A stretch of DNA of 64,000 nucleotides from Arenicellales bacterium (GTDB lineage: Bacteria > Pseudomonadota > Gammaproteobacteria > Arenicellales > JAJDZL01), in NCBI GenBank assembly GCA_965200545.1, contig CBDAUJ010000003.1:398504-462503 (forward strand), given 5' to 3'. The position numbers and the translations under genes are program-made. Shown piece after piece: positions 7,036-64,000 of the stretch; within the stretch, counting starts at the first letter, position 1; each line of letters starts with the position of its first letter. A model generated the notes under the pieces. That model did not search any database. It worked only from the letters and a program-made list of their open reading frames with translations, and had not been told where the DNA came from.

Positions 7036-8157
7036 CTACGCAGCAAGTTTTTCCCAGAATGATTTGATGCGACGGGTCCAGCTGGATACACCGGGCGTAT
7101 GCGTTTCGCCGCCGCACTTGACCAGCGTGTCGAATTCCGCCAAGAGTTCTTTTTGCCTGGAATCGAGATTGACGGGGGTTTCGACAATTAGCCGGCAGAA
7201 CAAGTCGCCGGGTTCGCCAGAACGGACGTTCTTGACACCTTTGCCGCGCAGTCGCATCATTTTGCCAGTTTGTGTCTCTGGGCGGATTTTCAAGTTCGCA
7301 CGGCCGTCAAGCGTCGGAATTTCTTCTGTACCGCCAAGTGCCGCAACTGCAAAACTGACTGGCACTTCGCAGTACAGATCGTCCCCGTCACGCGTGAATA
7401 TGGAATGCTTGCGGATTCGAATCTCAACGAAGAGATCGCCTGGCTCTACGCCTTGCGGACCTTCTTCCCCTTTGCCGGACAATCGAATCTGATTGCCATC
7501 GTCAATGCCGGCAGGAATCTGGACCGACAGCTTAGTGGTTTCCTGCACACGTCCCTGACCATTGCAGGCCATGCACGGATCGCGCACGACGCTGCCGGTG
7601 CCGCGACAGCTTGGACAGGTTTGCGACAACGTAAATCCGAGTTGCTGCATGCGCACCTGGCCACTGCCGCCGCACGAACTGCATCGGGTCGGGCGAGTAC
7701 CGGGTTTTGCACCACTCCCATCGCAGGTCTTGCAAACGACCATACGGGGGACATTGACCTGCCGCTCGACACCGTTGACAGCTTCCTCCAGATCCAGAGT
7801 CAGCGATATGCGCAGATTTGCGGCTTGAGCCTGACGGGCGCGGCGGCGCGAACCGAAGATATCACTGAAAATGCCATCAAAAATATCTTCAAATCCTGCT
7901 CCAGAATTGAATCCGCCGCCCGGCATGCCTTCAATGCCGTCATGACCAAATTGGTCATAGCGAGCGCGCATATTGGAATCAGACAGCACATCATACGCTT
8001 CTTTGGCTTCCTTGAAGCGCACCTCAGCCTGTGATGGATCGTCTTGATTGCGGTCCGGGTGGTGCTTCATAGCCAAACGACGATAAGCTTTTTTCAAATC
8101 AGCTTCAGTTGCGTTTTTGGACACTCCCAAAACTTCATAGTAATCGCGTTTGGCCAT
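7036..8157 (-). CDS. dnaJ: Molecular chaperone DnaJ
   Basis: J domain DYYEVLGVSKNATEADLKKAYRRLAMKHHPDRN. Four CxxCxGxG zinc-finger repeats (CKTCDGSG, CSSCGGSG, CPSCRGTG, CMACNGQG). Confidence 0.97.
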   Translation of the reverse strand: MAKRDYYEVLGVSKNATEADLKKAYRRLAMKHHPDRNQDDPSQAEVRFKEAKEAYDVLSDSNMRARYDQFGHDGIEGMPGGGFNSGAGFEDIFDGIFSDIFGSRRRARQAQAANLRISLTLDLEEAVNGVERQVNVPRMVVCKTCDGSGAKPGTRPTRCSSCGGSGQVRMQQLGFTLSQTCPSCRGTGSVVRDPCMACNGQGRVQETTKLSVQIPAGIDDGNQIRLSGKGEEGPQGVEPGDLFVEIRIRKHSIFTRDGDDLYCEVPVSFAVAALGGTEEIPTLDGRANLKIRPETQTGKMMRLRGKGVKNVRSGEPGDLFCRLIVETPVNLDSRQKELLAEFDTLVKCGGETHTPGVSSWTRRIKSFWEKLAA

Positions 8158-21454: not shown

Positions 21455-22359
21455 TGACGTTTGCACAGTCAATGATCCAAAACCCGGTGCCATGGCCTAA
21501 TGGCGCGAAATGTGCGGGCTGCATAACATTCGACATGGATGCGGACAGCCTGATTCATCTTGATCATCCGCAAGATGGCTATCGCCGGGCATCAGCCATT
21601 TCCTCGCAACAGTATGGTCCTCATATTGCGGTGCCGCGCATTGTTGAGACCTACAGAATTCTCGATATTCGGCAAACGTTTTTTGTCCCCGGCTGGTGCA
21701 TGGAAACCTATCCGCAGTCTGTAGAACTGATGCTTGAGGGCGGAAATGAAATCGGACATCATGGATACATGCATGAGAATCCAGTTTCGCAAAACAAAGA
21801 CGAGCAGGCCATGTGGCTGGATCGTGCGATTTCTGTGATTGAGAAAATGACTGGGCAGAAACCTCGGGGATGGCGAGCCCCGCTCTACAACTTCTCCAAC
21901 CATTCGGCCGATCTGCTGGTTGAGCGCGGCTTCCGTTACGATGCCTCTCTGATGGGTGATGATGTGCCGTACATCATTGAAGCAGAAAATGGAAATCTGA
22001 TTGAGCTGCCTTCACACTGGGGACTTGATGACTGGCCGCAGTGGGTGCAGTCGATGGATCTGGACTATCTTATGCCAATTCGCTCGCCTGATTCTGGCTG
22101 GGAAATTTTTGCTCAGGAATTTGAGACCGCATATAAATATGGCGGTTTATGGATTCCGGTCGTGCATCCGTTCGTAACCGGACGCCTGTCCCGCTGGGAG
22201 GTTGTCGCACATTTTCTGCAAAGCATTGTCGAACGCGGCGATGTCTGGCTTGCACCCATGGAAGAGATCGCGGCACATATTGAAAAAGTAGTGGAAAACG
22301 GTGATTTTGAAGTACGCCGCGTAAAGATGCCGCAATACAATTGTGCAGTTAAATGGTGA
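21454..22359 (+). CDS. Polysaccharide deacetylase (NodB-fold) family protein
   Basis: TFDMDADS and HGYMHE metal-binding-type motifs. ATG overlaps the permease stop (GTGATG). Confidence 0.8.
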   Translation: MTFAQSMIQNPVPWPNGAKCAGCITFDMDADSLIHLDHPQDGYRRASAISSQQYGPHIAVPRIVETYRILDIRQTFFVPGWCMETYPQSVELMLEGGNEIGHHGYMHENPVSQNKDEQAMWLDRAISVIEKMTGQKPRGWRAPLYNFSNHSADLLVERGFRYDASLMGDDVPYIIEAENGNLIELPSHWGLDDWPQWVQSMDLDYLMPIRSPDSGWEIFAQEFETAYKYGGLWIPVVHPFVTGRLSRWEVVAHFLQSIVERGDVWLAPMEEIAAHIEKVVENGDFEVRRVKMPQYNCAVKW

Positions 22360-22417
22360 ATGGGGCTGATGCTTTAAACAGTCATATTTTTTCTCAATCC
22401 AGATGGCAAAAAACAAA

Positions 22418-22566
22418 GGGGCTTATATACTCAACTTGACAAAACTCAAATAGCAGCCGATTAATTTTCAAATAAAGAAAAATATCGAGTGATTTGGAAA
22501 ATTAATTCTAATATTCAGCGATATATGGATCTATTTTGCATACGTCAAGTTAAGTATATAAGTCCC
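22418..22566. mobile_element. MITE-like non-coding element: 23-bp terminal inverted repeats (21/23 match) flanked by an 8-bp direct repeat
   Basis: IRL GGGGCTTATATACTCAACTTGAC (22418-22440) and IRR GTCAAGTTAAGTATATAAGTCCC (22544-22566). Direct repeat AAAACAAA at 22410-22417 and 22567-22574. AT-rich interior with no ORF. Confidence 0.55.
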
Positions 22567-22988
22567 AAAACAAAGGCATTCTTAAATCAGAACGCGCTAA
22601 ACCGATTTTCCAGCCGCAGTTAAATCCCTTTGCAAACAACCCCGACGAACATGCTTTCCACTGGCTGTCCACCTTCGAGTCGACAGCATCAAATGACGAG
22701 TCGTTTTGCGTTTGAGTTTCATTCCCCGAACTCATGCAGGGCTAATGTCCCCAACCCGTTTAGAGGCGTGACTTCACTATTCACGATGCTCAGCTTGTGC
22801 GATATATTGTTCGCTCGCTTTGTGCTTCTCAGCTGGCGGTTCGCTCTCACCGGACAGGTGATTATCTTCAAAAATCACCACAGCTGCTGGGCAGGATTCG
22901 CATCTGCCAGTGTAGAATGCTTTTCAGGGTGCGCCTAAAGATCTATTCTAAGATTGTAAAGGCTCTGTCAGCCTCAGTTCTAATTACG

Positions 22989-23387: not shown

Positions 23388-24353
23388 GAGTCTATTCCTC
23401 TATTGAGTTGAAAATATACTTTTTTAAATATACTTTTTTTTTTCACTCCGTTTCAAATGCGAATATCGGCAATTCACCGGTTTCGTGGTTACAAAGCTTT
23501 TTCATTGAAGCCTTCCTTGCAGAGCAAGCTGTCGACAGGCACCGCCTGCCTGAGCATTATAGCCGATTTTGCGCCAGCCCAGCACCCGAAGCTGCGATCG
23601 GAGCACTTTAGCAAAAATTTCCGAATTCAACGCACAACTCCCCTTCATCACTCCTCAGTCTTTGATTGCGCGGTTTTTTGTATTCCTTGATTTGATTTAC
23701 GCACCCACATCTTGACAATCGAGCACATTTTCTCTGGACATTTTTTACCAACCACCTAATTTCCAGCGCAAGTCGACTAGCTAGCGCCTATCAGAAAACT
23801 CTTTTTTCCTTATCAAAATAATTGTTTTTGTTAATAATATTTCAATATCAATTTACCGAAGATTCAGCTTTGGACACCGTTTAGAATTGATTTCTACACC
23901 ATATACAGAATGCACACCCTCGACGATTTGCGAGCCGCCATTTTTAGGAGTTGTTGCCTTAGGAGTTATTGCCGCAAATTCCCGAGGTTAAGTCGGCAGC
24001 CGGCCAATCCGCAGCAATCGATATTTGCCAACCGCGGGTAAGGTGACTTTGAGATTGCGGAGTGCGGCAAGCTATTGCTCAAGCGTTGCAGCAAATTGCC
24101 CGACATGCTTGCCGACAGCAGTCCCCTATGGAGCCAATATAACAAGCCGAATCAGCTTTCCAGATCAGCTTGTGGCATAACTTCATTTTCTGTGACTCTG
24201 AACTTGTGTGGTATATTCTCTGCCAGCCGTCTGCTTCTATGGCGGCTTTCAATTTCACTCAATGAGCGCCAGCCATCAGAAACTGAGAAAAAACCAAGTT
24301 GCACAAGACTTTAAGAAATAACATCTCGATTTTTGTCAATTAATGGTACAAAC

Positions 24354-30760: not shown

Positions 30761-31456
30761 TCAACTCCATCCAAATTGCTGTTTTTTGGCACGCTCTAAG
30801 GCGCGCGCTTTCACCGATGCGTCATCTACGCAGCCATCGGTCAGTCCGTTCAGGCCATGCAGCTCGCGCGTGCCGCCGAATTCGGTCAAGGCCACAGCTT
30901 TGCTGGCGCCGGGCTCAAAACGAACCGATGTGCCGGCCGGAATGTCAAGATGCATGCCGAACGCGGCCTCGCGGTCAAACTCAAGCGCCTTGTTGACTTC
31001 GAAAAAATGATAGTGACTGCCAATTTGAACCGGGCGATCGCCGGTATTGAGAACGGTTACAGAAGATTTGCGCCGGCCGACATTGGTTTCAATGTCCCCA
31101 TCGTCTGCAAGCAGTTCGCCTGGCGACACCTCGCTTGCAATTTTTTGCCTGCCTGGTCGGATCGGGTCGTGCACCGTCACCAGCTTGGTGCCGTCTGGAA
31201 ACGAGCATTCAACTTGAATCATGGGAAGCAAATCGGCCACGCCAGACATCACATCATCAGAAGTCAGAATCGTCGAGCCGTAGGAGATCAGTTCTGCGAC
31301 AGAGCGTCCGTCGCGGGCGCCCTCAAGAATCTCATCGCAAATATAGGCCACGGTCTCTGGGTGATTCAATTTCAGACCTCGACTTTTGCGCTTGCGAGCC
31401 AATTCGGCCGCCGTAAAGATCGTCAGTCTCTCGATTTCTGTCGGTGTCAGCAACAT
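30761..31456 (-). CDS. ureAB: Fused urease gamma-beta subunit (UreA-UreB fusion)
   Basis: N-terminal ~100 aa is UreA ([34 protein letters not shown]...). C-terminal ~120 aa is UreB (...[26 protein letters not shown]...). Single 231-aa ORF. Confidence 0.9.
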
Positions 31457-31505
31457 TGCAGATTCCTCGGTTTATCTAGATCCATTCGATGTGCGATCAC
31501 TCGCT

Positions 31506-32192
31506 TCAATTTGCAAACAGCCGTGATTCCTGCGCCTCGTGGCGCATCATGGCAATTTCGATCTGCGGAGTGAATGTGCCGATCCGATCGACACAGACCG
31601 CTTCTTCGCTCAGCAGTTTCTCAATAATGCGACGCTGCTCACCGATGATTCTCTGTGCATCAATATGGCCAATGATACCCAGACGCAGCGCCGCACTGGT
31701 CAGCTGCGTGCGCAGCTGATGGGCCGCCATCAATTCTGCCTGGCTTCGCTGCATTCCAAGAGCCCGCCAGACTGTGCCTTGGGCAACAGCGTTGTGGCCA
31801 TGCGCCTCGCCCGCCAGCACCCGCTTGCGGAACTGCTTTGCCGCAATACTGCCTAGTCGGGCATGCAAAGTCAGCAATGCCGCGCCGGCCCGCTTGGAGC
31901 ATTCACGGGACTCGAGGCTGAGCGAGCGGGCTTCGACTATCGCGTCCAAAGCACACACCTTGCCGCCGCCAAACTCCGTACGCCAGCAGGCAGCAATGAC
32001 TGGCCGATCTGTATAGTTCCAGCGCCATTGCAGCTGACTGGCAACAAAATCACAAACCTGATCAGCGGTTGTGACTGCACCGTCCGCTGCCAGTGTCTCA
32101 AGCCCCCAAGAAAATGACTGGGTACCGCCCGGGAAAAAACTGTCGCCATGCTGCAGAGCGAGCAGGAGATCAGAATTCAGCGAGCCCGTCAT
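31506..32192 (-). CDS. ureF: Urease accessory protein UreF
   Basis: UreF-like helical protein, 228 aa, between ureE and ureAB. 4-nt overlap with ureE. Confidence 0.85.
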   Translation of the reverse strand: MTGSLNSDLLLALQHGDSFFPGGTQSFSWGLETLAADGAVTTADQVCDFVASQLQWRWNYTDRPVIAACWRTEFGGGKVCALDAIVEARSLSLESRECSKRAGAALLTLHARLGSIAAKQFRKRVLAGEAHGHNAVAQGTVWRALGMQRSQAELMAAHQLRTQLTSAALRLGIIGHIDAQRIIGEQRRIIEKLLSEEAVCVDRIGTFTPQIEIAMMRHEAQESRLFAN

Positions 32193-32638
32193 GCAACTTC
32201 GAACACTCGCTCGTCATCAAGAAACGGCTGCAAGCGCTCAATATAGCCCTGCCGAGGTCCCTCTTGCGCAATCAGCAGACAGTCATCTTCGAAACGCACG
32301 CGCCAGTGCAGATTGCCGGCAAAGTATCCAAGCTCAAGCGCAGCGGCGGCGTTTTCCGCCCGACAGCGTATCCAGATTTCTTCTTGCATCCGCACCACGA
32401 TGGCACGCTGCGGCTCAAGATCAAGGATCGCTCCGTTGACCAAATGCTGACTGCGAGGCAATGCGATCTGGCAGACCGTTCCGCAGTCAGTTGTGGCGCG
32501 CAAGCGATGGCGCTTCAAGTCCTCACGCTCCAGCACCAAGTATTCCACTTTGCCATCGTGCATATAATGGTGAATCTGATTGCGCAAATCCGGATCATCA
32601 ACAAACCCGAGTATGCCGGTAACGGTCAGACTGCTCAT
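32189..32638 (-). CDS. ureE: Urease accessory metallochaperone UreE (no His-rich tail)
   Basis: UreE-like size and the LGYFAGNLHW segment (counterpart of the GNRH motif). First gene of the ure cluster. Confidence 0.75.
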   Translation of the reverse strand: MSSLTVTGILGFVDDPDLRNQIHHYMHDGKVEYLVLEREDLKRHRLRATTDCGTVCQIALPRSQHLVNGAILDLEPQRAIVVRMQEEIWIRCRAENAAAALELGYFAGNLHWRVRFEDDCLLIAQEGPRQGYIERLQPFLDDERVFEVA

Positions 32639-32870
32639 TGCGCTTCAGAGACTTTGGAAGCGGCTTGCCCTGCACTGCCGGCCGCGGCGGTCGCAAGCCG
32701 AATCGATTCAGCGAAACTGTTTGCTCGACTCATCTGATGATCTGCGATCACTGGCCAGCTAGCTCCTGCTAGTCATAGCCGGCATTGAATGGACTCTCAA
32801 GGCATACCGCATCAAGCAAAACATTTTCCCTGCGGCATCGATTCTCTCCGCCGGCACTCTGGATTGGCGC

Positions 32871-33965
32871 TCAGCCGCCCAACGCTTCTTTGACCAGCTG
32901 GCAATCAGTCCCTCTATCGAATTCCGTCCGAGCGCTGATGTAGCCGAATTTTATCCACCAGTCGTTCGTCATTTCCCAATGATCTCTGAGCTGGCCATTG
33001 GTTTGCTCAAACGGAGGCGCGCCTTCCAGCACCCCGCAAAACCGGGCAGTGTCCTCGAGACTGTAGATGTACAACTCGCCTTTCGCGGGATCGTTTTTCG
33101 ATACATCCGTTGTATGCGATCCATCGCCCAGAATCGCCGCAACATCTTCCACTGAGAACCCGACCGCCTCTGCAATCACCTTGTTGGACTCTTCCGCATT
33201 GGCACGCCAATGCTCAACGCCTGCGTAGATGGCTTGCAAGGCTCTGACAGCCAAATCGCGGCGATTCTCAAGAAAGTCATTCGACATATACATCGCATCA
33301 GACAGCAGCGCGGACTGAAGCCAGAAACTATTGAGGGAATGAGCGGCCAGCGTAGATCCCTCCAAGCCGTCCAGAACCTGTGTATTGAACGGAGACCACA
33401 GTGAAGCCGCGGCGACCTGGCCGCTGATCATCGCAGCCGCTGCATCCGCTGCTATGAGATTCACCATCTGCACGTCACCCACATCAATTCCATTTTGCTC
33501 CAGCAAGATACCCACCATAATGTGGGACAAGCCGCCTTCCAGCACCGCGATCTGCTTGCCTTTGAGCTCACTGATATCCTTAATGTCCGGGTGCAGAATA
33601 ATCATATCCGCTCCATGTGACAGATTAGACAGGTTGATCAGCTTGAAACCCATATCCTCAGCCGTAGCAATCGGACCAAACTCAATGGTGCTGAAGACAA
33701 TGTCAAGCTGATTGGTCGACAGCAGGCTGAACAGCTGAATCGGATCTTCAATGACGGTATTCTCGAATTTCAAATCCGTCAGCTCAAAGGCTTCCGCCAC
33801 ATACTGAAAGCCGTAGCCGGGCCAGCTGAAATGCCCGATCCGGACCGTATCCTGAGCAATGGCGCTGCCGGCGCCGAACCAAGACAGCGCGGCCAGCGAC
33901 AGTGCCGCCAGCGACATTTTCCCCCACCGGACGCATCGTTTCAGTTCTTGAATCTGCTTGTTCAT
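32871..33965 (-). CDS. NitT/TauT-family (NMT1/THI5-like) ABC transporter substrate-binding protein
   Basis: Signal peptide (AALSLAALSWFGAGSAIA). Periplasmic SBP following a cognate ATPase and permease. Confidence 0.8.
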   Translation of the reverse strand: MNKQIQELKRCVRWGKMSLAALSLAALSWFGAGSAIAQDTVRIGHFSWPGYGFQYVAEAFELTDLKFENTVIEDPIQLFSLLSTNQLDIVFSTIEFGPIATAEDMGFKLINLSNLSHGADMIILHPDIKDISELKGKQIAVLEGGLSHIMVGILLEQNGIDVGDVQMVNLIAADAAAAMISGQVAAASLWSPFNTQVLDGLEGSTLAAHSLNSFWLQSALLSDAMYMSNDFLENRRDLAVRALQAIYAGVEHWRANAEESNKVIAEAVGFSVEDVAAILGDGSHTTDVSKNDPAKGELYIYSLEDTARFCGVLEGAPPFEQTNGQLRDHWEMTNDWWIKFGYISARTEFDRGTDCQLVKEALGG

Positions 33966-35752: not shown

Positions 35753-35905
35753 TGGCCTGAAACGTCATTTTTGGTTTGGAAATATACCGCAAATCCAATG
35801 ATCGAAAAGAGGATTTTGCAAGCCGAATCAAAAGAGAATCTCGAATTCGAACCGATTGAATCGATTCACGCCCTGCAATGACACCCCTTGATCGGCAGGT
35901 TGCCA

Positions 35906-37380
35906 CTGTACTTTGATAGGAAAGCCTTGTACAATATGGCTTTTTCAAACCTCTGTCTTTCACCCGACGGGTGAAAGACAGAACTTGCCATAGGAGTACA
36001 AGGCCGATGAGGATTTTATCATACAAGCTGGGCGTCACGCGCAATGCGACCACCTCGCGCGCCGGGCTGCTGGCGCTCGCCGAGCTGCTGCGCAAGGTCG
36101 GGCTGGCGGAACTGGCGCGCACACACCTGCTGGCCGAGATCAGCCGCCGCCTGCTGGCGCTGGCGCTGCGCGGGCGCACCGAGGTCACCTTGGACATTGA
36201 CGCGACGGCGATCGAGGCTGACAAGAAGGAGGCCAAGTGGACGTACAAGAAGCACAAGGGATACATGCCGATGGTCGGGCATGTCGCCGAGACCGGGCAG
36301 GTGGCGGCGATTGACTTCCGCGACGGCAATGCGCCGCCGAGCAAGGACAATCTGGGGTTCATCCGCCAGTGCGAGGCGGCGCTGCCGGCCGGGGTGTCGG
36401 TGCGCCGGGTGCGCATCGACGCGGCGGGGTACAGCGCCGACGTGGTCAATTATCTGATGCAGAGCGGACAGGGCTTTGCGATCCGCGCGAAGATGGACGC
36501 CAGCGTCAAGGAGTCAATGAGCGCGATCCGGGACGGGCAGTGGGAGGCGCTGGTGCATGCGGACGGGACGCGGTCGAAGACGCAGGAGGCGGCGCGCACG
36601 CTGCATGCGATGGCTGACACTGGGGCGTTCACGCTGGCGGAGCGGCGAAAGCGCATTGCTGCGGGCGAGAACGCGCACATTGACGCGTTTGTGGATGCGG
36701 GCGGCAATGCGGCGTCGCGCGGGGCGTATCTGTACCGGGCGATTGCGACGAATCTTGATGGCAAGACGGATCATGAGATTGTGCAGTGGCACAGCCTGTG
36801 CGGGGAAACTTCGGAAAATAAAATAAAGCAGCTGCGCAGCGACTTTGCCGGTGCCAGGCTGCCGTGCGGGAAGTTCGGGGCCAATGCGGTGTGGCTGATG
36901 GTCAATGCGCTGGCGTACAATGTGCTGTGCCTGCTGCGGATGATGCTGCCGGCGAGGTGGCTGACCGCGCGGGCGCCGGCGCTGCGGTTTCATCTGTATG
37001 GCGCCGGCGGGCATGTGGTGCGCCACGGCCGGCAGCTGACGGTCAAGGTGCAGGCGCATCGGCACCGGGTGATCGGCGCGGCGCTGCGCTCGATAAGGGA
37101 GTTTGCGCTGCCCGCCTGACGGCGGCCGCCCGGCGGGCGGCAAAGGGCTTGGGATCGACCGATTGCCGCCGGGCAAGGCGGGCGTGCGCCTGCCGGGGGC
37201 GAGAGGCGGCGCAGTCGCGCCGCGCCGGTCGGTTTTGTGGAAAATGCGGCGCTGAAAGCGCGGCCGGACCGGAATCCGGTGCGGCCGGGCAGGTCGAATC
37301 GACGAATTCGGCGGCCCGTCTTCGCCCTCAGCATTGAACGTGCCGATTTGGGACACCAAACATCAAAGTTTCGAGTACAG
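35906..37380 (+). mobile_element. IS1380-family insertion sequence (boundaries tentative)
   Basis: Abrupt switch to very GC-rich DNA at about 36.0-37.3 kb. Contains an IS1380-type transposase. Possible imperfect ends: CTGTACTTTGAT (35906-35917) versus the reverse complement of 37362-37380 (CTGTACTCGAAACTTTGAT). No clear target duplication. Confidence 0.5.
36007..37119 (+). CDS. IS1380-family DDE transposase (N-terminal region shorter than usual)
   Basis: VTLDIDATAIEADKKEAKWTYKKHKGYMP, RIDAAGYS and GETSENKIKQLRSDF match the D-D-E blocks of IS1380/ISEcp1-type transposases. AGGAG precedes ATG 36007. Confidence 0.8.
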   Translation: MRILSYKLGVTRNATTSRAGLLALAELLRKVGLAELARTHLLAEISRRLLALALRGRTEVTLDIDATAIEADKKEAKWTYKKHKGYMPMVGHVAETGQVAAIDFRDGNAPPSKDNLGFIRQCEAALPAGVSVRRVRIDAAGYSADVVNYLMQSGQGFAIRAKMDASVKESMSAIRDGQWEALVHADGTRSKTQEAARTLHAMADTGAFTLAERRKRIAAGENAHIDAFVDAGGNAASRGAYLYRAIATNLDGKTDHEIVQWHSLCGETSENKIKQLRSDFAGARLPCGKFGANAVWLMVNALAYNVLCLLRMMLPARWLTARAPALRFHLYGAGGHVVRHGRQLTVKVQAHRHRVIGAALRSIREFALPA

Positions 37381-47038: not shown

Positions 47039-48117
47039 GCCATGAACCGCTGGTGGTTTTAGATGGCGTGACCAAAACATTTGGTGAAGTCATCGCTGTT
47101 GATCGCGTGAGTCTGAATATTGAGCCGGGTGAATTTCTGGTTCTGCTCGGGCCATCAGGGAGCGGCAAGACAACCTTGCTTTCGATGCTCGGCGGATTCA
47201 TCACACCAACGGCCGGCAAGGTGCTGATCCGCGGCGAGGACGTTACGCACCTGCCCCCCGCGACGCGACCGACCGTCACAGTGTTTCAAGACTATGCGCT
47301 TTTCCCTCATATGAGCGTAAGTGACAACATCGGATTTGGCCTGGTGATGAGAAAAGTGCCGAAACGCGAGCGCCTGCGGCGCATATCGGCGGCACTCGAA
47401 AAAGTCGGCCTGACCGGCTTTGGCGCGCGCGGCGTTCACCAGCTCTCCGGCGGCCAGCGCCAGCGGGTTGCATTGGCGCGCGCAATCGCCGTGGAGCCGA
47501 CAGTCCTGCTGCTGGATGAGCCCCTCGGAGCACTGGATTTGAAAATTCGCCAGAAAATGCAAGCAGAGCTGGTGCATCTGCAAAAGAACCTCCATTCAAC
47601 ATTTGTCCATGTAACGCATGACCAGGATGAGGCCATGAGTATTGCAGATCATATTGCGCTGGTCAACCGTGGAAAAATTGAAGACTACGGTTCCCCAGAG
47701 CGAATCTACCTGCGTCCGGCCACTTTGTTCACGGCAAGATTCATGGGTGAAACGAATATCATTGAGGTGCAGCCGACGGCGGCCAGTGACGGCGAGAAGC
47801 TGATCGTTGACAGTCCGCTCGGCGAATTGACGCTGCCGCTTGCGAACTTGGACAGCAGCATACCCCACAATATTGCACTGCGGCCGGAGCAAATCAAATT
47901 AAGCGACGGAAACATCGCAGCCGGTCATCTGGCGCTGGGAGATGCCAAAGTGACTGAGGTCGTATTTCAAGGCACCCATCGGCTCTGTCGCGCGATAGGC
48001 GGCACGGCAATGGATACCGAACTGCTGATCAAGGTTGCGCCGGATCATCAGGTTGTGGCGGGCGATATGCTTGCTTTACAAGCGCGCAGAACCGATGTGA
48101 CGCTATTGTCGAAGTAA
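47035..48117 (+). CDS. PotA-like ABC transporter ATP-binding protein
   Basis: GPSGSGKTTLLSMLGG, LSGGQRQRVALARA, LLLDEPLGALD, plus a C-terminal TOBE-like region. Confidence 0.9.
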   Translation: MSHEPLVVLDGVTKTFGEVIAVDRVSLNIEPGEFLVLLGPSGSGKTTLLSMLGGFITPTAGKVLIRGEDVTHLPPATRPTVTVFQDYALFPHMSVSDNIGFGLVMRKVPKRERLRRISAALEKVGLTGFGARGVHQLSGGQRQRVALARAIAVEPTVLLLDEPLGALDLKIRQKMQAELVHLQKNLHSTFVHVTHDQDEAMSIADHIALVNRGKIEDYGSPERIYLRPATLFTARFMGETNIIEVQPTAASDGEKLIVDSPLGELTLPLANLDSSIPHNIALRPEQIKLSDGNIAAGHLALGDAKVTEVVFQGTHRLCRAIGGTAMDTELLIKVAPDHQVVAGDMLALQARRTDVTLLSK

Positions 48118-53208: not shown

Positions 53209-54551
53209 CTATTCCCTCGCAAATTGCATAACTTTCTCTTCAGACTTCGGATGGCATACTTTGTGAACTAAAGCTGCGTTTTTTAATGAAGTTTGTCCAC
53301 CCATACTATGCTCTACAATGTGATGAATTTCGGCATCCGACCAATTTAAACCGCCACCACAAACCGAACAGACTTTTCTCTGTTGGAAATACACCAGCTC
53401 TCGAATCTCATCGGGAAATTCTCTTTGCGTATCTTTTGGACATGTTGAAAGCATATTCGCAAGCATTTCGGCGACAAAAAAGTATGTCTTCGAGAAATAC
53501 TTTCGCTATTTGCGCTACTAACTCTAGTCCACGTTCCATATTCTAACCGATACTTATATATTGGACCAGAATCATCTACTTGAGATGCTGCCCTTAAGTT
53601 TAGATTGAACTTATCCAAAGCTAATGCAAATTCTTGTTGCCAAGTAGGGCTGAAGTCAACAAGCAAAGCTGCATGAATAACATGGTGCGCCTTCAATTTT
53701 GGGCGTTTATCGTCTCTTAACAGTTTGTGTAACAGATCAAATATGCCTCAAATTCTCTTCGCATCTTCTCCATTTGGATCAAAATCAAGGTTATCGTAAT
53801 ATAGATCGTCAATTGCACCCGCGTTAATGTCCGGGAAATCTCCGCCTGCTCTCTTTCGCTGAATCAGCAACAAAGAAGTCACTTGGGCTGCAAGTTGCCT
53901 AGTCTTACCTCGATCACTGCGCGGTTTTGCACCCATTACTTCTTTAAAAATTCATGGCCAGGATAGCCGATCATTTCAGGCTTTCCCCCAAGACGTAGTA
54001 TGAAATCGTTCATACCCCTGGCATAGCATCTCGACGCTCTTGTGCGTTTAATGCGCTACCTGCCTGCAGACGCACGAAAAGATCGAGAATTTTATTAACG
54101 TCATCTGATTGAATCATCACAACTAAGAGTGGTGTTCTCTTTAGCTGTTCTTGATAATCTGGCGGAAATTCGTGGAAGTATTTCCCTGCCCAAGGACATG
54201 ATTGTTTCACTAAAAATTGGGGAAATTTAGCTTCATTATTTTGTGTTTGTGGATCAAACAGCCGGAAGTCGCCTTCTACATACTTGTATATTGATGTCAA
54301 TCGCTGTTGTCCATCAATTATTTCGAGACCCTCTCGAGTTAAACCAGCGATCTCTTCTTTCTTCTCGTGAAGATATAACAAAGGAAGTGTGTAACCACGA
54401 AGTAACGAATCAATGAGCTTTTTTGTTGAGGCATTGTCCAAACAATGCCACGCTGATATTCCGGATTTGCAATCATCATTCCGGATTTGAACAAGTCTAT
54501 AAGTTCGGCAACTACTTTTGTTTTGCTTGTTTTGCGTTCAACTTTCATCAT
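53209..54551 (-). pseudogene. Frameshifted DUF262 (ParB-like nuclease) - HNH gene, GmrSD-like
   Basis: Five ORF fragments in alternating frames: NPEYQRGIVW (54339-54551), IIDGQQRLTSIY (54010-54441), middle pieces, and an HNH end CSVCGG...EIHHIVEHSMGG...HKVCH (53209-53466). Confidence 0.65.
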
Positions 54552-54568
54552 TTTCAGTTTTCAGACCC

Positions 54569-56097
54569 TATGTTTTAACCTGTTCTGCACAAATTATCGG
54601 GAGTGCGCGATATAGAATATGCGTATTTCCAACGTTTCACCACCACCAGAGGAGCAGGCATGAAAGATTATAGAGAGCGTGACAGCGGGGGTTTGGAATC
54701 GACGGGGCGGATGCTGGTCCATGCGGGGCTGGATGTTCACAAGGACACGGTGGCCGTGGCGGTGGCGTATCGGCCGCATCCGTCTCGGCCGCTGTCGGTT
54801 GAGGATCGCGGCACGGTGGCCAACCGGCCGGGGGCGCTGCTCAAGCTGATCGAGGGGCTGCGGCAGGAATTCGGCGAGTCGGTGCATGCGGCGTATGAGG
54901 CGGGCGCGTGCGGCTTTGTGATCTGGCGCCAGCTTCGGGACCTGGGCGTGAGCTGCGAGGTGGCGGCGCCTTCGCTGATTCCGAAAAAGCCCGGTGTCCG
55001 GGTCAAGACCGACCGGCGCGATGCGCGCGAGCTGGCGCGGCTGTCCGCGCTGGGCAGCCTGACGCCGGTGTGGGTGCCGGATGCCGAGCAGGAGGCCATG
55101 CGGGATCTGGTGCGCCTGCGCGCCGACCTCAAGGGCAGTATTCAAAAACAGCGCCAGCAGCTGAATCATTTTGTGCTGCGTCACGGTCATCAATGGTCCC
55201 GAACCAAGTGGACTCGGGCGCACCGCAGCTGGCTGCGAGACCGGAAGTTTTCCCATCCGGCGCAGCAGATTGCGCTGGCCAGCGCCCTGGACACTGTGGA
55301 GCAGCAGGAACAGCGCCTCAGCGAGCTGGAGCGCGACATTGGCGCCCAGTGCGAGCTGTGGACACTCCATCCGCTGGTCGAGTCGCTGCGCGCCCTGCGC
55401 GGGATCGACACGCTGACCGCTGTCACTGTGGCCGCTGAGATCGGCGACCTGCGCCGCTTCCGCAGCGCCGGACAGTTCATGGCGTATCTCGGCCTGACAC
55501 CCAGCGAGTTCAGCAGCGGCTCGCGCCGGCGCACCGGCGCCATCACCCGGACCGGCAATGGCGCAGTGCGCAGAATCCTCACCGAAAGCGCCTGGACTTA
55601 CCGCCATCCGCCACGCCGCACCAGACATCTCCAGCGCAAGGCGCAGCACGCTTCCGAATACGCTGTGAAACGCGCCTGGGTGGCCCAGAAAAGACTGTGC
55701 GGCCGATATCTGGCGCTGTGCCGCAAAGGCAAGAGCTCCAAAACCGTTGTCACCGCCATCGCCCGCGAGCTGGCCGGCTTCATCTGGGACATCGGCTGCC
55801 ACGAGCTGCGCCGGCTGCAGGTCGAGGCTGAGCGCTGACCGATCAATCGCAGCAGGTGCAGGTCTTATGGAAAAACCCTCGTTGTTTCTAGGTCGGCGCA
55901 TTGGCCATATGGCCAATGCGATCCACGAAATCAGACTGAGGCAGATCCGTGACGCAACAGAGTCATGTGGTAATCAACCCACGCATATCAGATTGTCAAC
56001 TCAGTGTCACCGCCAAGGCCGCACCTGCTGCTTTTCTTCATCAGAGTATTATTGTATATTGAACGAATCCGGGAAACGACAAACAGGTTAAAACATA
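54569..56097 (+). mobile_element. IS110-family (IS1111-like organisation) insertion sequence
   Basis: Perfect 16-bp inverted repeats TATGTTTTAACCTGTT (54569-54584) and AACAGGTTAAAACATA (56082-56097). Short 5' and long (~260 bp) 3' non-coding ends. GC-rich transposase gene in AT-rich surroundings. True ends may extend a few bp beyond the IRs. Confidence 0.8.
54660..55838 (+). CDS. IS110-family (DEDD) transposase
   Basis: GLDVHKDTVAVAV N-terminal motif. C-terminal GIDTLTAVTVAAEIGDLRRFRSAGQFMAYLGLTPSEFSSG. GGAG precedes ATG 54660. Confidence 0.9.
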   Translation: MKDYRERDSGGLESTGRMLVHAGLDVHKDTVAVAVAYRPHPSRPLSVEDRGTVANRPGALLKLIEGLRQEFGESVHAAYEAGACGFVIWRQLRDLGVSCEVAAPSLIPKKPGVRVKTDRRDARELARLSALGSLTPVWVPDAEQEAMRDLVRLRADLKGSIQKQRQQLNHFVLRHGHQWSRTKWTRAHRSWLRDRKFSHPAQQIALASALDTVEQQEQRLSELERDIGAQCELWTLHPLVESLRALRGIDTLTAVTVAAEIGDLRRFRSAGQFMAYLGLTPSEFSSGSRRRTGAITRTGNGAVRRILTESAWTYRHPPRRTRHLQRKAQHASEYAVKRAWVAQKRLCGRYLALCRKGKSSKTVVTAIARELAGFIWDIGCHELRRLQVEAER

Positions 56098-56104
56098 TCA
56101 GAAA
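55975..56104 (+). repeat. 130-bp IS 3'-tail, copy 1 (identical to 58075-58204)
   Basis: Base-for-base identity read directly from the sequence. Offset is exactly 2100 bp, direct orientation. Confidence 0.95.
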
Positions 56105-58291: not shown

Positions 58292-60394
58292 TCACTCCGT
58301 CTCCCCGTTTCCCATCTGCTTTTCAAATGCCTGCCGTACCAAACCCATCATGTAGGGCAAGTCGTCTGGTTTACCGAGCTTTACCTCCACATCACCGTTT
58401 CCCCAGCGACCAACGCCAGAGACATCCTCGGCCAAACCCTTCGGATCGCGAAGTTCGTGAATCTGCATATTAAGTGACAGGCAAAGCCTGTTTTTCTGGG
58501 GCACAACATCCACAAAGTTAGTCTCTGCTTTGTAGGCGACATAAAGCTTCAGAAACTCCTCCGAAACGCATGGGCTGAGTGCCAGCGTTTCTTTTCGAAA
58601 TTTCTCGAACAATTCGTACATCGACGAACCAGATGTGAGGTTTGGGTGGTCGTTGACTGTATAACCCCCAGAAATTTCGCTGCTTGTGCGGTATTCCTCG
58701 AGCCGTTCCGTATCCAAATCAGGAGCTGCCCATACATCTGTGGCCTCTTTGGCGAGACGTTTAGCGCGGTTCTTGATAGCATCTTCATTCCACTTATCAA
58801 GGTGGCCCAGATCTTTGTTTAATTTAAGCGGACTCTCCCTAAACCCTCCTGTCATATCCCGCTTATCCAGAAAGGGTCGGTCACCGTATTCCGAGTTATA
58901 ACCAGTGAGCGTAAGATTACCGAGTGTGTGCAACCAAATCTTCTGAATGCGTTGCCACTCAGGACCGAGATCTTCACGCCACTCCTGTGACAGATTCTCG
59001 TTTTGAGGAAGAATGTGTTCTATGGTGTATTCACCAACGGGAACGCGTTCCTTGCGCTCATGGTTTTCGAGCCGACGCAACCAGTAATTGCTTCGAGAAA
59101 AATTGTATAGATCACGCTTGACAACCTCATGCTTGAACTCTTTGTCGCTCGGAAACCGACGGTAGGAGGGGAGTGTCAACAGATGGGCCTTGGCACTCTC
59201 GAGGTAAGTCTCTTTCCGAAGCGCACGTCCAAAAGTAGCGAATGTCTTGTTTAACGAATTTGTGGGAATCGCACACACAGCGCGGCGGAACACATACGCC
59301 TCAAGCAACCGTACCACAGCCTCGAATTTATCTTCATCCAGTATTTTGTTGGTAAAATCATCGTATAGTTCAAGCAATAGTGGATAAGCGACATCCACTT
59401 TCAGTTCTCTCAGGTCAGCAAATACCTCAGCAAGTTTCGCGTTAGTTTCTTTCCCCAGTGCCATAGCGCAGTAATAACCTGCAAATTTATGAATATCGGC
59501 AACCAGTGCATCCACTCCAGCATTGGCGACATCCGGTTTTCTCGCTTGGCTCTTGAAAGCTTCGTATACTGCCCGAATGTTCGGTATCTCCCCAGTCTTT
59601 AGGGTGAGGTAGTGCCGCATGAAACTGTCGAAATGTGAACCGTACGCTTCTTGACCAAACTCCACTTCCATCGGCCGCCAATGATCTCTGTATAACTGAA
59701 TCTGATGGGGCGGTTCCAACCCCATCAGAATGAAATTGCGAATCAAGTCGGCCTGACTCAGTTCTCGTCCAGTTGAATTCATGCTCTCAAAAATGAGCTG
59801 AGGGTTGTCTTGATCCCGGGTGAGAGCGATGTCGACAATAACAAGCTTCGCAAGGCCATTGCAAAGTGCAGAAAGGTTGGTTCCCAGGTCCTTCACACGC
59901 TGCTCAAAGAACGAGAAGTTTTCGGTGATGCGTAGTGATCGGTTTGCGGACGGCTCCAGCTGTCGAATCAGACTTAACAGACTTGCCCTGTCGGTCTGTG
60001 TGAGTAGCAATTTAAATCTTCTCTCCTCATCCTCCTCGGGGTTTAGCAAGTAGTAGTTGCGCAATTTCCGGGCCGTAAAGTCGGGAACGGGTTCGTTGTC
60101 CCCTAGTTCACGCGCCAAAGCTTCAAGAAGTAGTGTGACCGTAGTTAATCTCTGCTGACCATCAATGACAAGTAGTGGCGAGTGGCCGGTTACATGGAAC
60201 AAACTTTTCTCAATATAGACAATCGAACCGACAAAATGGACTGAGATGGTATCGTCAATACCGGTGCGAATGATGTCATCCCAAAGTTGGCGGCATTCAC
60301 GCTCAGTCCATGAGTACATGCGCTGATAGATTGGGATTTCGAACTGTGTCGACCGCCTTAGGAAACGCAAAAGGTTAGTTTCAGTTGCTCTCAT
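58292..60394 (-). CDS. DUF262-DUF1524 (GmrSD-like) nuclease family protein with extra C-terminal domain
   Basis: N-terminal FEIPIYQRMYSW and VIDGQQRLTT (DUF262/ParB-like). EYTIEHILPQN ... HTLGNLTLTGYNSEYGDRPF (DUF1524 His-Me finger). About 150-aa C-terminal extension. Confidence 0.85.
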   Translation of the reverse strand: MRATETNLLRFLRRSTQFEIPIYQRMYSWTERECRQLWDDIIRTGIDDTISVHFVGSIVYIEKSLFHVTGHSPLLVIDGQQRLTTVTLLLEALARELGDNEPVPDFTARKLRNYYLLNPEEDEERRFKLLLTQTDRASLLSLIRQLEPSANRSLRITENFSFFEQRVKDLGTNLSALCNGLAKLVIVDIALTRDQDNPQLIFESMNSTGRELSQADLIRNFILMGLEPPHQIQLYRDHWRPMEVEFGQEAYGSHFDSFMRHYLTLKTGEIPNIRAVYEAFKSQARKPDVANAGVDALVADIHKFAGYYCAMALGKETNAKLAEVFADLRELKVDVAYPLLLELYDDFTNKILDEDKFEAVVRLLEAYVFRRAVCAIPTNSLNKTFATFGRALRKETYLESAKAHLLTLPSYRRFPSDKEFKHEVVKRDLYNFSRSNYWLRRLENHERKERVPVGEYTIEHILPQNENLSQEWREDLGPEWQRIQKIWLHTLGNLTLTGYNSEYGDRPFLDKRDMTGGFRESPLKLNKDLGHLDKWNEDAIKNRAKRLAKEATDVWAAPDLDTERLEEYRTSSEISGGYTVNDHPNLTSGSSMYELFEKFRKETLALSPCVSEEFLKLYVAYKAETNFVDVVPQKNRLCLSLNMQIHELRDPKGLAEDVSGVGRWGNGDVEVKLGKPDDLPYMMGLVRQAFEKQMGNGETE

Positions 60395-60546
60395 GATGCA
60401 AATCCATATTACGGTACCAAGACTTTATTTTTGCTCTAGTTCAGAATTAAGAGGTCCTTGATGGTTGAAAAAATCAATGATTATAACTTATTCTCGAACA
60501 GAGTTAGGTTCAGATTCTACAAATAATGTAATCAGGGATAAATGCT

Positions 60547-60819
60547 TTGGCGATAACCGCACCACTAACCGACCTGGTAAGTGCGGACAATGGTGCGGAT
60601 TCTTACCTCTGGTGGACGTGGTCGCAATGTATTCGAACCATGTCCTCACTACATTTTACATGCGCTGTATTGGATACTTCGACTCGACCTCTCTATCAAC
60701 AAATCGCAGTCAAATCATTACAACTATTTCAACTTGGATTAAGTTATAGAACCATTGCCAAAAATCTGCACGTTGACGAAAAAACCGTTGCGAAAGCAAT
60801 AAATTGGATCAGCGATTGA
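60547..60819 (+). CDS. Small helix-turn-helix protein, divergent from the DUF262-DUF1524 gene
   Basis: C-terminal LGLSYRTIAKNLHVDEKTVAKAINW is resolvase/HTH_7-like. TTG start; protein-level paralogy with 56385-56609. Confidence 0.5.
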   Translation: MAITAPLTDLVSADNGADSYLWWTWSQCIRTMSSLHFTCAVLDTSTRPLYQQIAVKSLQLFQLGLSYRTIAKNLHVDEKTVAKAINWISD

Positions 60820-61172
60820 TTCGTGCCAAATCGTTTATATTTGTATGGATCAAATTGATCGACAATTTCAGTTCCTTTAGTCTCGTTCTACTTGTTGCAG
60901 AAAGTCTTTCCAGCCTTCGTATATCATTACCATCTCCATGGTATCTAATTCGCAATATCGAAGGAGAGCCGTTCGAATCTTATCACGGCTGCAATTGGAC
61001 ATTTCTTCATGCTGCATTAGGGACATAAGCAGTCAAGGCTGCACCACCATCTATCAGTTCAATTGAATCATCCAAATATTGCATATCTTTATCTGCGCTA
61101 TCTTGGGAATTTTTGGATAGTAATTTGTATGGGGCGACTATATTCCCGTTGTCGCGTTGAACCCATCGCCAG

Positions 61173-61449
61173 TCATTGAAGTTTTGGCTCTGAATACCAT
61201 CCTGAGACCCGTAGATAGGTTCTGACTACTTTTTCTGCAACAAGTCTGAGCCTCAATATGATAACCACCGGGGAAATAACATTTAGCCAACTAGCTAACC
61301 TGAAAGCCACCATCAGATAGTGCAATGAAGAAACTGTCATCAACTTTTTGGTTGGCATACTCGCTTTCTTTTCCAGTATAGAAAAGTTTCGTAGGACATT
61401 CGATTGCCAACTTGAATAATGATTTAGTCAAGCGTTTTTCTTGATGCAT
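61173..61449 (-). pseudogene. N-terminal fragment of a DUF2779-like PD-(D/E)XK protein with an in-frame stop
   Basis: MHQEKRLTKSLFKLAIECPTKLFY...FIALSDGGFQVS, then TAG (61291-61293), then LAKCYFPGGYHIEA, after which the frame is lost. Family assigned from my recollection of the DUF2779 N-terminal pattern. Confidence 0.35.
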
Positions 61450-61618
61450 ACTCTTTGAGGTGTCAATTTGGTTGAGTTTACCTGATCACGGATATCCTAC
61501 CATGTTGCCTTTTTAGTAACTAAAATCGTAAACATTTGATAAATATGACAACACTATTTTTTCTTTCATGACGGTGGCCCCGCCGCGCGGGGCTGGCTAC
61601 TATAAAGTCTTACCATTC

Positions 61619-64000
61619 TCAGGATGAGTCAATATTTCTTACCGCAGTCATTTCAATCCCTGTTGTCGTAATTATTCTAACTGCAATCTGTTTGGTTTCT
61701 GGGATATTAAACGGTGTAGACTCCAATGACATAACAGCTTCCCATTCCTCCGTGTTTAATCCACGCACAATTGCAGATTTCAATCTTTTTATCTGTTTAT
61801 CTCCGTTTTTGAATGGAAAGTGAATACGCCTGGCAAAAAATGCCTTCCCGTTATAACTTGTATCAATCATCCACGTATCAATGGACTTCTCTGGTCCACG
61901 CCTAACGGACCCTGTTGCCGGATCATAGGTATCCCAACCTTTTTGTCTGACTTTAACTTGACCTGCTCCAATATATTGAATTTCGATATCAGGCTGGCCA
62001 ATAGCAACAATTGCCCTATCGTCTTTTTCAAACTTAAGAGGACCGATCATTAAGTCTCGATTGGCTTGAGCCTTGAGAACTGTCAATCTCCCCATTGAAT
62101 ATTTCTTTTCGTCCCGCGCATCTGCCTCAAATGCGAACGCTACGATAACCAACATACTGATAGATTCAATCGATACTACATTTTGTGCAGCCTTTCGTAT
62201 CAGCGCATCTGAACAAATTTGATCGTCTGCGAGAATCATAATTGCAACGTATTCGATAGAACCATCGGAGTGATTCACTCGAGCGGTATGAGTGACAAAT
62301 AACTCTGGCGAAGCCACTTCGATTGAATCAAACAATATTTTTGAATCTCCGACCTCAATACCAGAAACTGACAACGCATTTATCACTGCATTAATTGCCG
62401 TCCGACTCTCAGTTAGTTCATCTCTCGGACTAACTTTATGTGGTGATACATATCGATTGGGGGAGATGCTTTCAACGGTAAAAGGTCCAGCACATCGCTT
62501 CCTCCTTGGATCTGTTACAGGTCTGTCTACTAACAAAATCGGGGGGGGGGAACTTCGATAAGCCAGAATGCCAGCTGAAACTTTCGGTACTCGTTCGTAT
62601 ACAAATCCTTCAGACGGGTCCGTTGGGTCATGCTCAATTTGCACGGTATCTATAGATTGAGATTTGGATAATTCAGCATCTTTCGTTCTACCCTCCAACG
62701 AGTTTTTCAACAAAAACCAATCAAATGTCGCACTCAGCAGTCTTTGGCGTGTAAGTTGAATCGGAATAGCCGAAGTATCTGTCGTAATCCATCTTCGACC
62801 CCATTTTTCTGCAACATAGGCTGTCGTTCCAGAACCACAAGTAATGTCCATTACCAAATCACCAGGTTCTGTAGACATCAGAATGCAGCGTTCAACTACT
62901 TTTTCAGCGGTTTCTACAACATAATGGAGATCATTAGCTGCACTTGTATCATCCCAATAGTCATAAATCGATTTTCCAGGAATTTCGTCCGAATATAACT
63001 TCCATCGCAATTCACCACCAGATTCCGCTACCGCTAATCGATTTTGGTCTGCCAGTGATTGTAGACCACCGGGATTTTCTACCCGCCAAACATGACCGGG
63101 GGAAACTCTGTACTCAACACCTTTCCACACAAAAGGACTTTTCCGAAGCACATCACCACTTCCAGAACTTTGTGACATAAGTGGTTGTCGAGAAAATAGC
63201 CGAGCATCTTCGGCAATCATTTGAGGATTGGTCTTTTCCTCATTAGTCAAATTCCGTGTGCTCGTATCTGATTCTTCAATCATTGCATATGATGTCATAT
63301 AGTCGATAATCTCCTTAGTGTTTTCAAAACGTTGATAGATTTGAAAATACTTCAATTGAGATATGTCTTTCGCATACCAAAGTAAATAATCTCCAGAGCG
63401 CGGCAAGCGATTGGATTGAACGATCGTTTTTCTGAAACGAATCATACCAACTCTATTTTCATAGCCAAAAACTTCATCCAAAATTAATGCACATCGATTT
63501 ACATTTGCATCTCCAATTTGCATGAAAAATGATCCCGAGTCTCTCATTATGGCTCTTGCATGAACTGCTGTTTGATGGATGGTATCCAAATAAGAATGAA
63601 TGCCGTTTCTGTACGTATCTCTAAACGCTTTTACCGATTGAGGCTCTGCTGGCAATGATTCTTTCCTTTCAGTAACGGTTCGACTAGTGGTTGACGGTTG
63701 AAAATTCGACTTAAATCCAATTCCATATGGAGGATCATAGAAAAACATCTGTACACCACGGTCAGGTGAGTCATAACCTTCTTTTTTTGCTAATGAAGCC
63801 ATTACAGAAATCGAATCTCCCTTGATTACTCTGTTTGTCCAGTTGCCCTCATACTCGTACCATTTGTAAGTTGAATCTTCAGGCAACCCATTAAAATCAG
63901 AGAACAAGTTCAACTCTGGTTTTGCTTGCAATGAATCGATCCATGCTTGGGGGTGGATTTTCTCATGAATGTACAAAGGAAATGCGTCTGTTCTAACGTC
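61619..64000 (-). CDS. Beta-class N6/N4 DNA methyltransferase, Type III Mod-like, with large C-terminal domain (5' end probably outside the window)
   Basis: Motif IV FFYDPPYGIGF near the N-terminus. Motif I VMDITCGSGTT about 290 aa later (TRD-sized insert). Frame stays open to the window edge upstream of the TTG at 63976. Confidence 0.85.
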   Translation of the reverse strand, partial: DVRTDAFPLYIHEKIHPQAWIDSLQAKPELNLFSDFNGLPEDSTYKWYEYEGNWTNRVIKGDSISVMASLAKKEGYDSPDRGVQMFFYDPPYGIGFKSNFQPSTTSRTVTERKESLPAEPQSVKAFRDTYRNGIHSYLDTIHQTAVHARAIMRDSGSFFMQIGDANVNRCALILDEVFGYENRVGMIRFRKTIVQSNRLPRSGDYLLWYAKDISQLKYFQIYQRFENTKEIIDYMTSYAMIEESDTSTRNLTNEEKTNPQMIAEDARLFSRQPLMSQSSGSGDVLRKSPFVWKGVEYRVSPGHVWRVENPGGLQSLADQNRLAVAESGGELRWKLYSDEIPGKSIYDYWDDTSAANDLHYVVETAEKVVERCILMSTEPGDLVMDITCGSGTTAYVAEKWGRRWITTDTSAIPIQLTRQRLLSATFDWFLLKNSLEGRTKDAELSKSQSIDTVQIEHDPTDPSEGFVYERVPKVSAGILAYRSSPPPILLVDRPVTDPRRKRCAGPFTVESISPNRYVSPHKVSPRDELTESRTAINAVINALSVSGIEVGDSKILFDSIEVASPELFVTHTARVNHSDGSIEYVAIMILADDQICSDALIRKAAQNVVSIESISMLVIVAFAFEADARDEKKYSMGRLTVLKAQANRDLMIGPLKFEKDDRAIVAIGQPDIEIQYIGAGQVKVRQKGWDTYDPATGSVRRGPEKSIDTWMIDTSYNGKAFFARRIHFPFKNGDKQIKRLKSAIVRGLNTEEWEAVMSLESTPFNIPETKQIAVRIITTTGIEMTAVRNIDSS
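62541..62550 (-). repeat. Homopolymeric C10 tract (G10 on the plus strand) inside the methyltransferase ORF
   Basis: Read directly. Encodes SSPPPI in the current in-frame state. Confidence 0.95.

Follow-up and report, generated by a model that had tools for sequence, protein, structure and literature searches.

A C10 tract as a candidate slipped-strand switch in a Type III-like mod gene of an Arenicellales bacterium, and recurrent repeats in related mod genes

We analysed a 64,000-nucleotide stretch of DNA (the window) from an Arenicellales bacterium (assembly GCA_965200545.1, contig CBDAUJ010000003.1, positions 398,504 to 462,503), near the end of which a run of ten cytosines lies inside the open reading frame (ORF) of mod, a gene for a Type III Mod-like DNA methyltransferase. 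We consider it likely that this tract acts as a contingency repeat of the slipped-strand type within a Type III-like mod gene, so that cells making full-length Mod and cells making truncated Mod would coexist and interconvert. On the plus strand, positions 62541–62550 read GGGGGGGGGG, ten G bounded by C and A. On the coding (minus) strand, the codons CGA AGT TCC CCC CCC CCG ATT specify R S S P P P I, with TCC CCC CCC CCG encoding S550, P551, P552 and P553, and the ORF stays open through the tract. The run is the only G/C homopolymer longer than 6 in the window, where the number of runs of at least 10 expected per base type is 0.05–0.08 for independent bases and ~0.01 under a first-order Markov model. 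The one other 10-mer homopolymer in the window is an intergenic T10 at 23434–23443. The original prediction, made from the letters alone, had pointed to a G10 run encoding SSPPPI within an in-frame gene and had called it the longest G/C homopolymer noticed in the window; direct re-reading on both strands and a count of all G/C runs in the 64 kb bear this out. In length, C10 falls within the published definition of phase-variable mononucleotide repeats (at least 9), and such tracts switch at about 1e-3 (PMC5909438). Repeats of this kind are carried by 17.4% of the Type III mod genes in REBASE (PMC5909438).

Profile, sequence and modelled fold identify the gene product as a beta-class N6/N4 DNA methyltransferase of the Type III Mod-like kind. 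Codons 67–859 and the stop codon occupy 61619..64000 on the minus strand. The full-length protein, P0001, has 859 amino acids. Pfam PF01555 (N6_N4_Mtase) matches residues 149–476 at E=2e-25, and the PADLOC MTase_III profile PDLC03632 matches at E=3e-130. A profile search of the PDB with 30 homologues gave EcoP15I Mod (4ZCF) as the best match (E=1.4e-20), with further matches to Helicobacter pylori Mod (6K0W, E=2e-19) and Mbo45V Mod. Using the AlphaFold2 model as the query, Foldseek returned 4zcf (E=2.5e-14), 6k0w and 7dsu as top matches, the same three Mods as the sequence search; the model of the whole Mod is only moderate, with a predicted local distance difference test score (pLDDT) of 63 and low confidence at residues 527–596. 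Type III Mods carry motif IV (DPPY) on the N-terminal side, a recognition region in the middle, and motif I (FxGxG type) on the C-terminal side. The protein follows this beta-class order of DPPY, variable region and motif I. Catalytic motif IV, DPPY, lies at residues 155–158 (63725..63736, minus strand) and the motif I that binds S-adenosylmethionine, VMDITCGSGTT, at residues 449–459 (62822..62854, minus strand); D155, P156 and P157 of the former and D451, T453, G455 and G457 of the latter are invariant in 120 homologues. Between them, residues 256–425 (62924..63433, minus strand) form a central variable region that represents a distinct allele and is the presumed target-recognition domain. 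This region shows 45–49% identity to the closest relatives, versus 85–93% in the flanking catalytic blocks, a mosaic known from the allelic recognition domains of Type III mod families.

The tract lies beyond all of these elements. The last methyltransferase block ends at about residue 490 and is followed by a partly variable inter-domain linker, residues 491–571 (62486..62728, minus strand), which was delimited in the linker alignment of 120 homologues and holds C10. The linker leads into a conserved C-terminal domain of 288 residues (572–859; 61622..62485, minus strand). Modelled alone with AlphaFold2, this domain reached a mean pLDDT of 80.6, and it was found in 2679 cluster representatives. 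It has no sequence match in Pfam, NCBIfam or the PDB, and Foldseek gave nothing below E=0.018, hence no significant fold match in the PDB. Its likeness to NucS/EndoMS, AspBHI, RPB5 and immunoglobulin-like domains is weak and is not claimed. The original prediction was thus right in the Mod identity of the ORF, on which profile, sequence and fold agree, and in placing the tract between motif I, upstream at 62822–62854, and the large C-terminal domain downstream. The gene it described requires one correction, as it is incomplete in the window, whose end cuts off the first 66 codons, these lying beyond base 64000.

We then computed the products of alleles one base shorter or longer. The C9 frame runs into ...SSPPRFC* with a stop 3 codons on and gives a product of 555 amino acids, and the C11 frame runs into ...PPPDFVSRQTCNRSKEEAMCWTFYR* with a stop 22 codons on and gives a product of 575 amino acids. 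Both products keep the whole methyltransferase fold and the recognition region, and only the C-terminal domain is gone (~305 residues), which agrees with the ~300 residues that a +1 or -1 slip had been predicted to cost. The possibility that the C-terminal domain is made separately from a restart codon after the frameshift is unsupported, as past the tract there is just a TTG without a ribosome-binding site. In the proposed mechanism, slipped-strand mispairing during replication would add or remove one C. C10 (and by inference C7 or C13) would give the 859-residue Mod, and C9 or C11 would give the 555- or 575-residue Mod without the conserved C-terminal domain of ~300 residues. The population would then be a reversible mix of cells with full-length and truncated Mod, and the activity of the system would change, with methylation and restriction changing together or in their coupling. 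Here we infer a useful slippage rate, reversibility, selection and a role for the truncated protein.

Comparison with close homologues suggests that the homopolymer itself, and not just the prolines, is retained. The closest homologue (locus L001, 74% amino acid identity) has the same codons in frame, CGC CCC CCC CCA, forming C9. At locus L002 the tract is interrupted (TGC CCC TCC CCC, i.e. C4-T-C5), and L003 and L004 have only C5 at this position. The window gene and L001 agree at only 46% of their four-fold degenerate sites, where C is the least frequent base (12%). CCC is the rarest proline codon in the mod genes compared (41% guanine plus cytosine, GC), yet it is the sole one filling the tract; apart from the two pairs in the tract, no proline pair of the window gene and L001 has CCC on both sides. 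The run is therefore maintained despite the codon bias. The original prediction had named homologues encoding the same prolines with mixed codons as a sign against switching; L001 uses a pure C9. P0088 (518 amino acids, 72% identical) was considered as an OFF allele, but its contig runs out ~30 residues short of the tract, which makes it uninformative.

The same tract was compared between assemblies of one sample, S1, using Logan contigs of its sequencing runs X1 and X2. The X1 contigs contain 99% of the region's words and match the window over 64 kb bar a few substitutions; past base 64000 the X1 contig continues for ~6 kb. A look for RNA runs containing the region found none. One G is omitted at 62541 in the X1 contig, giving G9 and a shifted frame, and this is the sole indel in the 64-kb window. 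The control T10 (23434–23443) and every run of 6–8 bases are equal in length between the X1 contigs and the window. The G9/G10 discordance is suggestive of tract instability, and it is inseparable from homopolymer error. A break in the X2 contigs around the tract was rejected as a sign of heterogeneity, as it already begins 20 nt upstream of the tract and the coverage of X2 is patchy throughout (~4x). Elsewhere, at 31300–33500, the X2 contigs differ from the window by ~25 substitutions while X1 agrees with it, which indicates that two strains coexist in the sample.

To place the tract in a wider family, we examined related mod loci. This family has ~8000 members, and a linker run of at least three prolines is present in 13 of the 120 best homologues. 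Linker DNA was read for 6 of these 13, and all six have pure poly-C of at least 9: C10 in the window, C9 in L001, C23 in L009, C14 in L010, C14 in L011 and C12 in L012, where L009–L013 had been picked for poly-proline in the protein. The loci L012 and L011, which are syntenic, differ in length (C12 vs C14). Further loci came from scans with the single protein P0001, which returned 1 locus in metagenome contigs and 2 in genome contigs, L006 among them. In L006, a Dehalococcoidia metagenome-assembled genome (MAG; CBDESM010000003.1), a perfect (GGGCG)x8.2 array occupies 7465–7505 in the linker of the mod homologue. This gene is split into ORFs of 625 and 353 amino acids, with the frame changing inside the array, and one more GGGCG unit or two fewer would restore the frame. 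The linker is the commonest repeat site among the relatives, as the repeats of L006, L009, L010, L011 and L012 all map there. A second hot spot is the N-terminal variable loop, where L013, a Logan contig, has C18 at 4014–4031. The L013 mod is split into ORFs of 106 and 767 amino acids; homology upstream and downstream lies in different frames, and the change occurs at C18.

In ~150 kb of related loci, G/C runs of at least 9 are all poly-C on the mod coding strand within mod, with one exception, a C13 at 924–936 of L009, ~150 bp upstream of the res start, which could be a promoter-level switch. L009 also has its C23 inside mod, at 5575–5597, where it encodes seven prolines and is in frame. Repeat length therefore varies among relatives, which are not strains of one species, and both in-frame and out-of-frame states are seen. 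The survey shows that repeats arose independently at three variable positions in mod. A search for proteins consisting of the C-terminal domain only, as the downstream halves of shifted genes, found no clear OFF allele among the short matches inspected, which were contig-edge fragments or distant relatives. Several contigs of the family come from samples whose record names suggest sponge or marine metagenomes.

The related loci also reveal the partner gene. A gene for a ResIII helicase of 950–973 amino acids lies directly upstream of mod in L001, L003, L007, L008, L009, L010, L011, L012 and L013, and its C-terminal match to RE_endonuc is sub-threshold (E=0.002). Type III Res subunits are SF2 helicases with a C-terminal PD-(D/E)xK nuclease; Type III systems are further characterised by ATP-dependent cleavage that requires two sites in inverse orientation and by hemimethylation of an asymmetric site. 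The arrangement in the nine related loci points to a Type III-like res–mod operon whose gene order is opposite to that of EcoP15I (EcoP1/EcoP15). At L001 (4027–5787) and L003 (4180–5841), two of the closest relatives, the res–mod pair adjoins a large serine recombinase, and at L001 the pair lies beside smpB and is followed by OLD/AriA-like ATPase, AbiEii, McrBC and TIR/ThsB defence genes. From this gene content, the res–mod operon probably travels on integrative defence islands.

Several observations weigh against reading C10 as a switch of this kind. With ten bases, the tract only just exceeds the minimum length for phase variation. The G9/G10 difference rests on assembled contigs (~6x) and not on reads, homopolymers are a classic site of sequencing and assembly error, and the contigs of run X2 do not span the tract. 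Among the relatives, the out-of-frame alleles of L006, a MAG, and L013, a Logan contig, could be assembly errors as well, although the L006 repeat is a perfect array of whole units, which stands against such an error. Given how L009–L013 were picked, the family survey gives a biased picture of how frequent repeats are, and protein databases hold mostly in-frame alleles. The window stops inside mod, so that the res gene of this genome lies beyond it and the upstream ResIII gene is known from the nine related loci. Finally, the tract comes after the entire catalytic fold. Methylation might therefore survive a frameshift, and the shifted state may differ from a simple methylation OFF state. In one version of this idea, which we regard as unlikely, a slip would detach the C-terminal domain while methylation stays on and Res is no longer supported or restrained; the predicted outcome is that cells alternate at random between a state that modifies and restricts and one that only modifies, or between two architectures of the complex, and such a switch would have arisen several times, at three hot spots, in environmental and symbiotic bacteria.

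Explanations without adaptive switching were weighed against the same data. The tract could be a static coding feature, a Pro-Pro-Pro linker turn of stable length, with G9 being a sequencing or assembly error. Many family members have x-P-P-I or D-P-I here, which agrees with it, as proline is evidently functionally acceptable, and so do the C5 of L003 and L004 and the fact that the within-sample evidence is one low-depth contig. However, the rarest proline codon, CCC, fills the tract exclusively and is kept in a relative with near-saturated synonymous sites, no other indel separates the same pair of assemblies in 64 kb, even at T10, and relatives with C12–C23 exceed what a proline linker needs, while two relatives are out of frame at the repeat. 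A static feature therefore seems rather unlikely to us. Another possibility, which we judge quite improbable, is that the tract mutates often but serves no adaptive switch, its frameshifts marking the onset of pseudogenisation in a horizontally acquired, decaying island. In favour of this, the low-GC island around mod shows signs of degradation (a GmrSD_N fragment, a multi-copy IS110 and a 1.2-kb ORF-free stretch downstream of mod), and L002 shows that substitution can remove the tract. Against decay, both ORF halves are otherwise intact and conserved in each locus examined, and distant lineages have separately acquired repeats at three variable spots, a recurrence that selection for repeats explains more easily than decay does.

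Slippage might also act above the DNA level. Transcriptional slippage on long homopolymers is well established. At C10/G10, slipping by RNA polymerase or by the ribosome might let one DNA give full-length and truncated Mod at a fixed ratio, and a 2026 preprint (10.64898/2026.04.01.715767) describes Mycoplasma mod gene repeats that combine DNA, RNA and ribosomal slippage. The G9/G10 difference in DNA and the variable DNA tracts of the relatives point instead to the DNA level, and we regard slippage by the polymerase or ribosome as the explanation here as very improbable; the two kinds of slippage are not mutually exclusive. Taken together, the length of the tract, the tracts of homologues, the G9 contig and the out-of-frame relatives make slipped-strand switching of mod the probable reading, in keeping with the possible phase-variable methylase of the original prediction.

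The surroundings of the gene were also annotated. The last 8 kb of the window form a low-GC island (41–48% GC vs 52% for the window). Besides mod, it encodes a GmrSD-type (DUF262/DUF1524) nuclease of 700 amino acids with a DUF5655 tail (58292..60394, minus strand), matched by Pfam GmrSD_N, GmrSD_C and DUF5655 and by PADLOC Orf5 (E=7e-194), and it contains a truncated GmrSD_N fragment at 54010–54441. These genes make it a small, partly decayed defence island. At 54562–56104 lies a transposase element of the IS110 family (DEDD_Tnp_IS110 and Transposase_20). Its depth in run X1 is 62–68x vs ~7x in the flanks, and it is therefore multi-copy, with roughly 8–10 copies in the genome or community. Downstream of mod, ~1.2 kb (60400–61618, 41% GC) has no ORF longer than 95 amino acids and could be what is left of a gene that decayed. 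Past the mod stop, at ~61578–61595, lies an inverted repeat rich in GC, GGCCCCGCCGCGCGGGGC; it is without a T tail and was not called by the terminator scan. Scans found no tRNA or intrinsic terminator that would mark out the island or the gene end.

Read depth drew attention to three further places in the window. The segment at 35900–37340 has 63% GC and is covered at 20–38x by X1 contigs with ~15 substitutions, vs ~3–5x in its flanks; relatives of higher abundance in the sample carry it too, as either a conserved or a recently transferred gene. At 22004–22670 and 47437–47471, depth is several-fold in excess and loose ends of contigs are numerous in both X1 and X2, which marks repeated sequences, the second of only ~35 bases.

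Phase-variable Type III mod genes are already known, and the late position of the putative switch is the unusual feature here. The nearest precedents are modH, modJ and modL of H. pylori and modU of Campylobacter upsaliensis (PMC5909438), which are likewise Type III mod genes with a G/C tract of at least 9 in the ORF and which share the allelic central recognition region and the frameshift by slipped-strand mispairing, here proposed. In contrast to these, the tract described here comes after the catalytic fold and before an extra C-terminal domain of ~300 amino acids that those proteins lack, the relatives have res before mod, the hosts are environmental or symbiotic bacteria and not small-genome pathogens, and the system is known from sequence. 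The modA phasevarions of Haemophilus influenzae and Neisseria (PMC1976455, PMC4525171) embody the same concept of a repeat-driven Type III Mod switch. In modA, tetranucleotide repeats lie near the 5' end, OFF means no enzyme and res is often inactive, whereas here the repeat is a mononucleotide one late in the gene; for the methylation-controlled regulon of modA, any counterpart here would be conceptual. EcoP15I Mod (PDB 4ZCF), the best match in both sequence and fold, shares the beta-class motif order and, with the relatives, a superfamily 2 (SF2) helicase-type Res partner, but it has ~14% identity, 644 amino acids without the C-terminal domain, the order mod then res, and no repeat. Lastly, L006 resembles the pentanucleotide mod genes (the GCACA[n] groups and Streptococcus suis modS; PMC5909438, PMC8125046) in that the frame is set by the number of units, and it differs from the GCACA[n] genes in its GGGCG unit, its inter-domain linker position and its origin in a Dehalococcoidia MAG.

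Repeat-driven switching of Type III methyltransferases is established in host-adapted pathogens, and the reason for it in environmental bacteria is an open question (PMC5909438). The present case comes from a metagenome-type genome and led to a family of ~850-residue Mod proteins with an upstream Res, in which C9–C23 tracts or a pentanucleotide array have been acquired repeatedly. In assemblies, repeats of this kind make genes look frameshifted or split, and such genes should neither be corrected automatically nor be called pseudogenes. With the proposed switch located behind the catalytic fold, these proteins could help to reveal the role of the C-terminal domain. If our reading is true, these bacteria would be hedging their bets on DNA defence or on methylation state.

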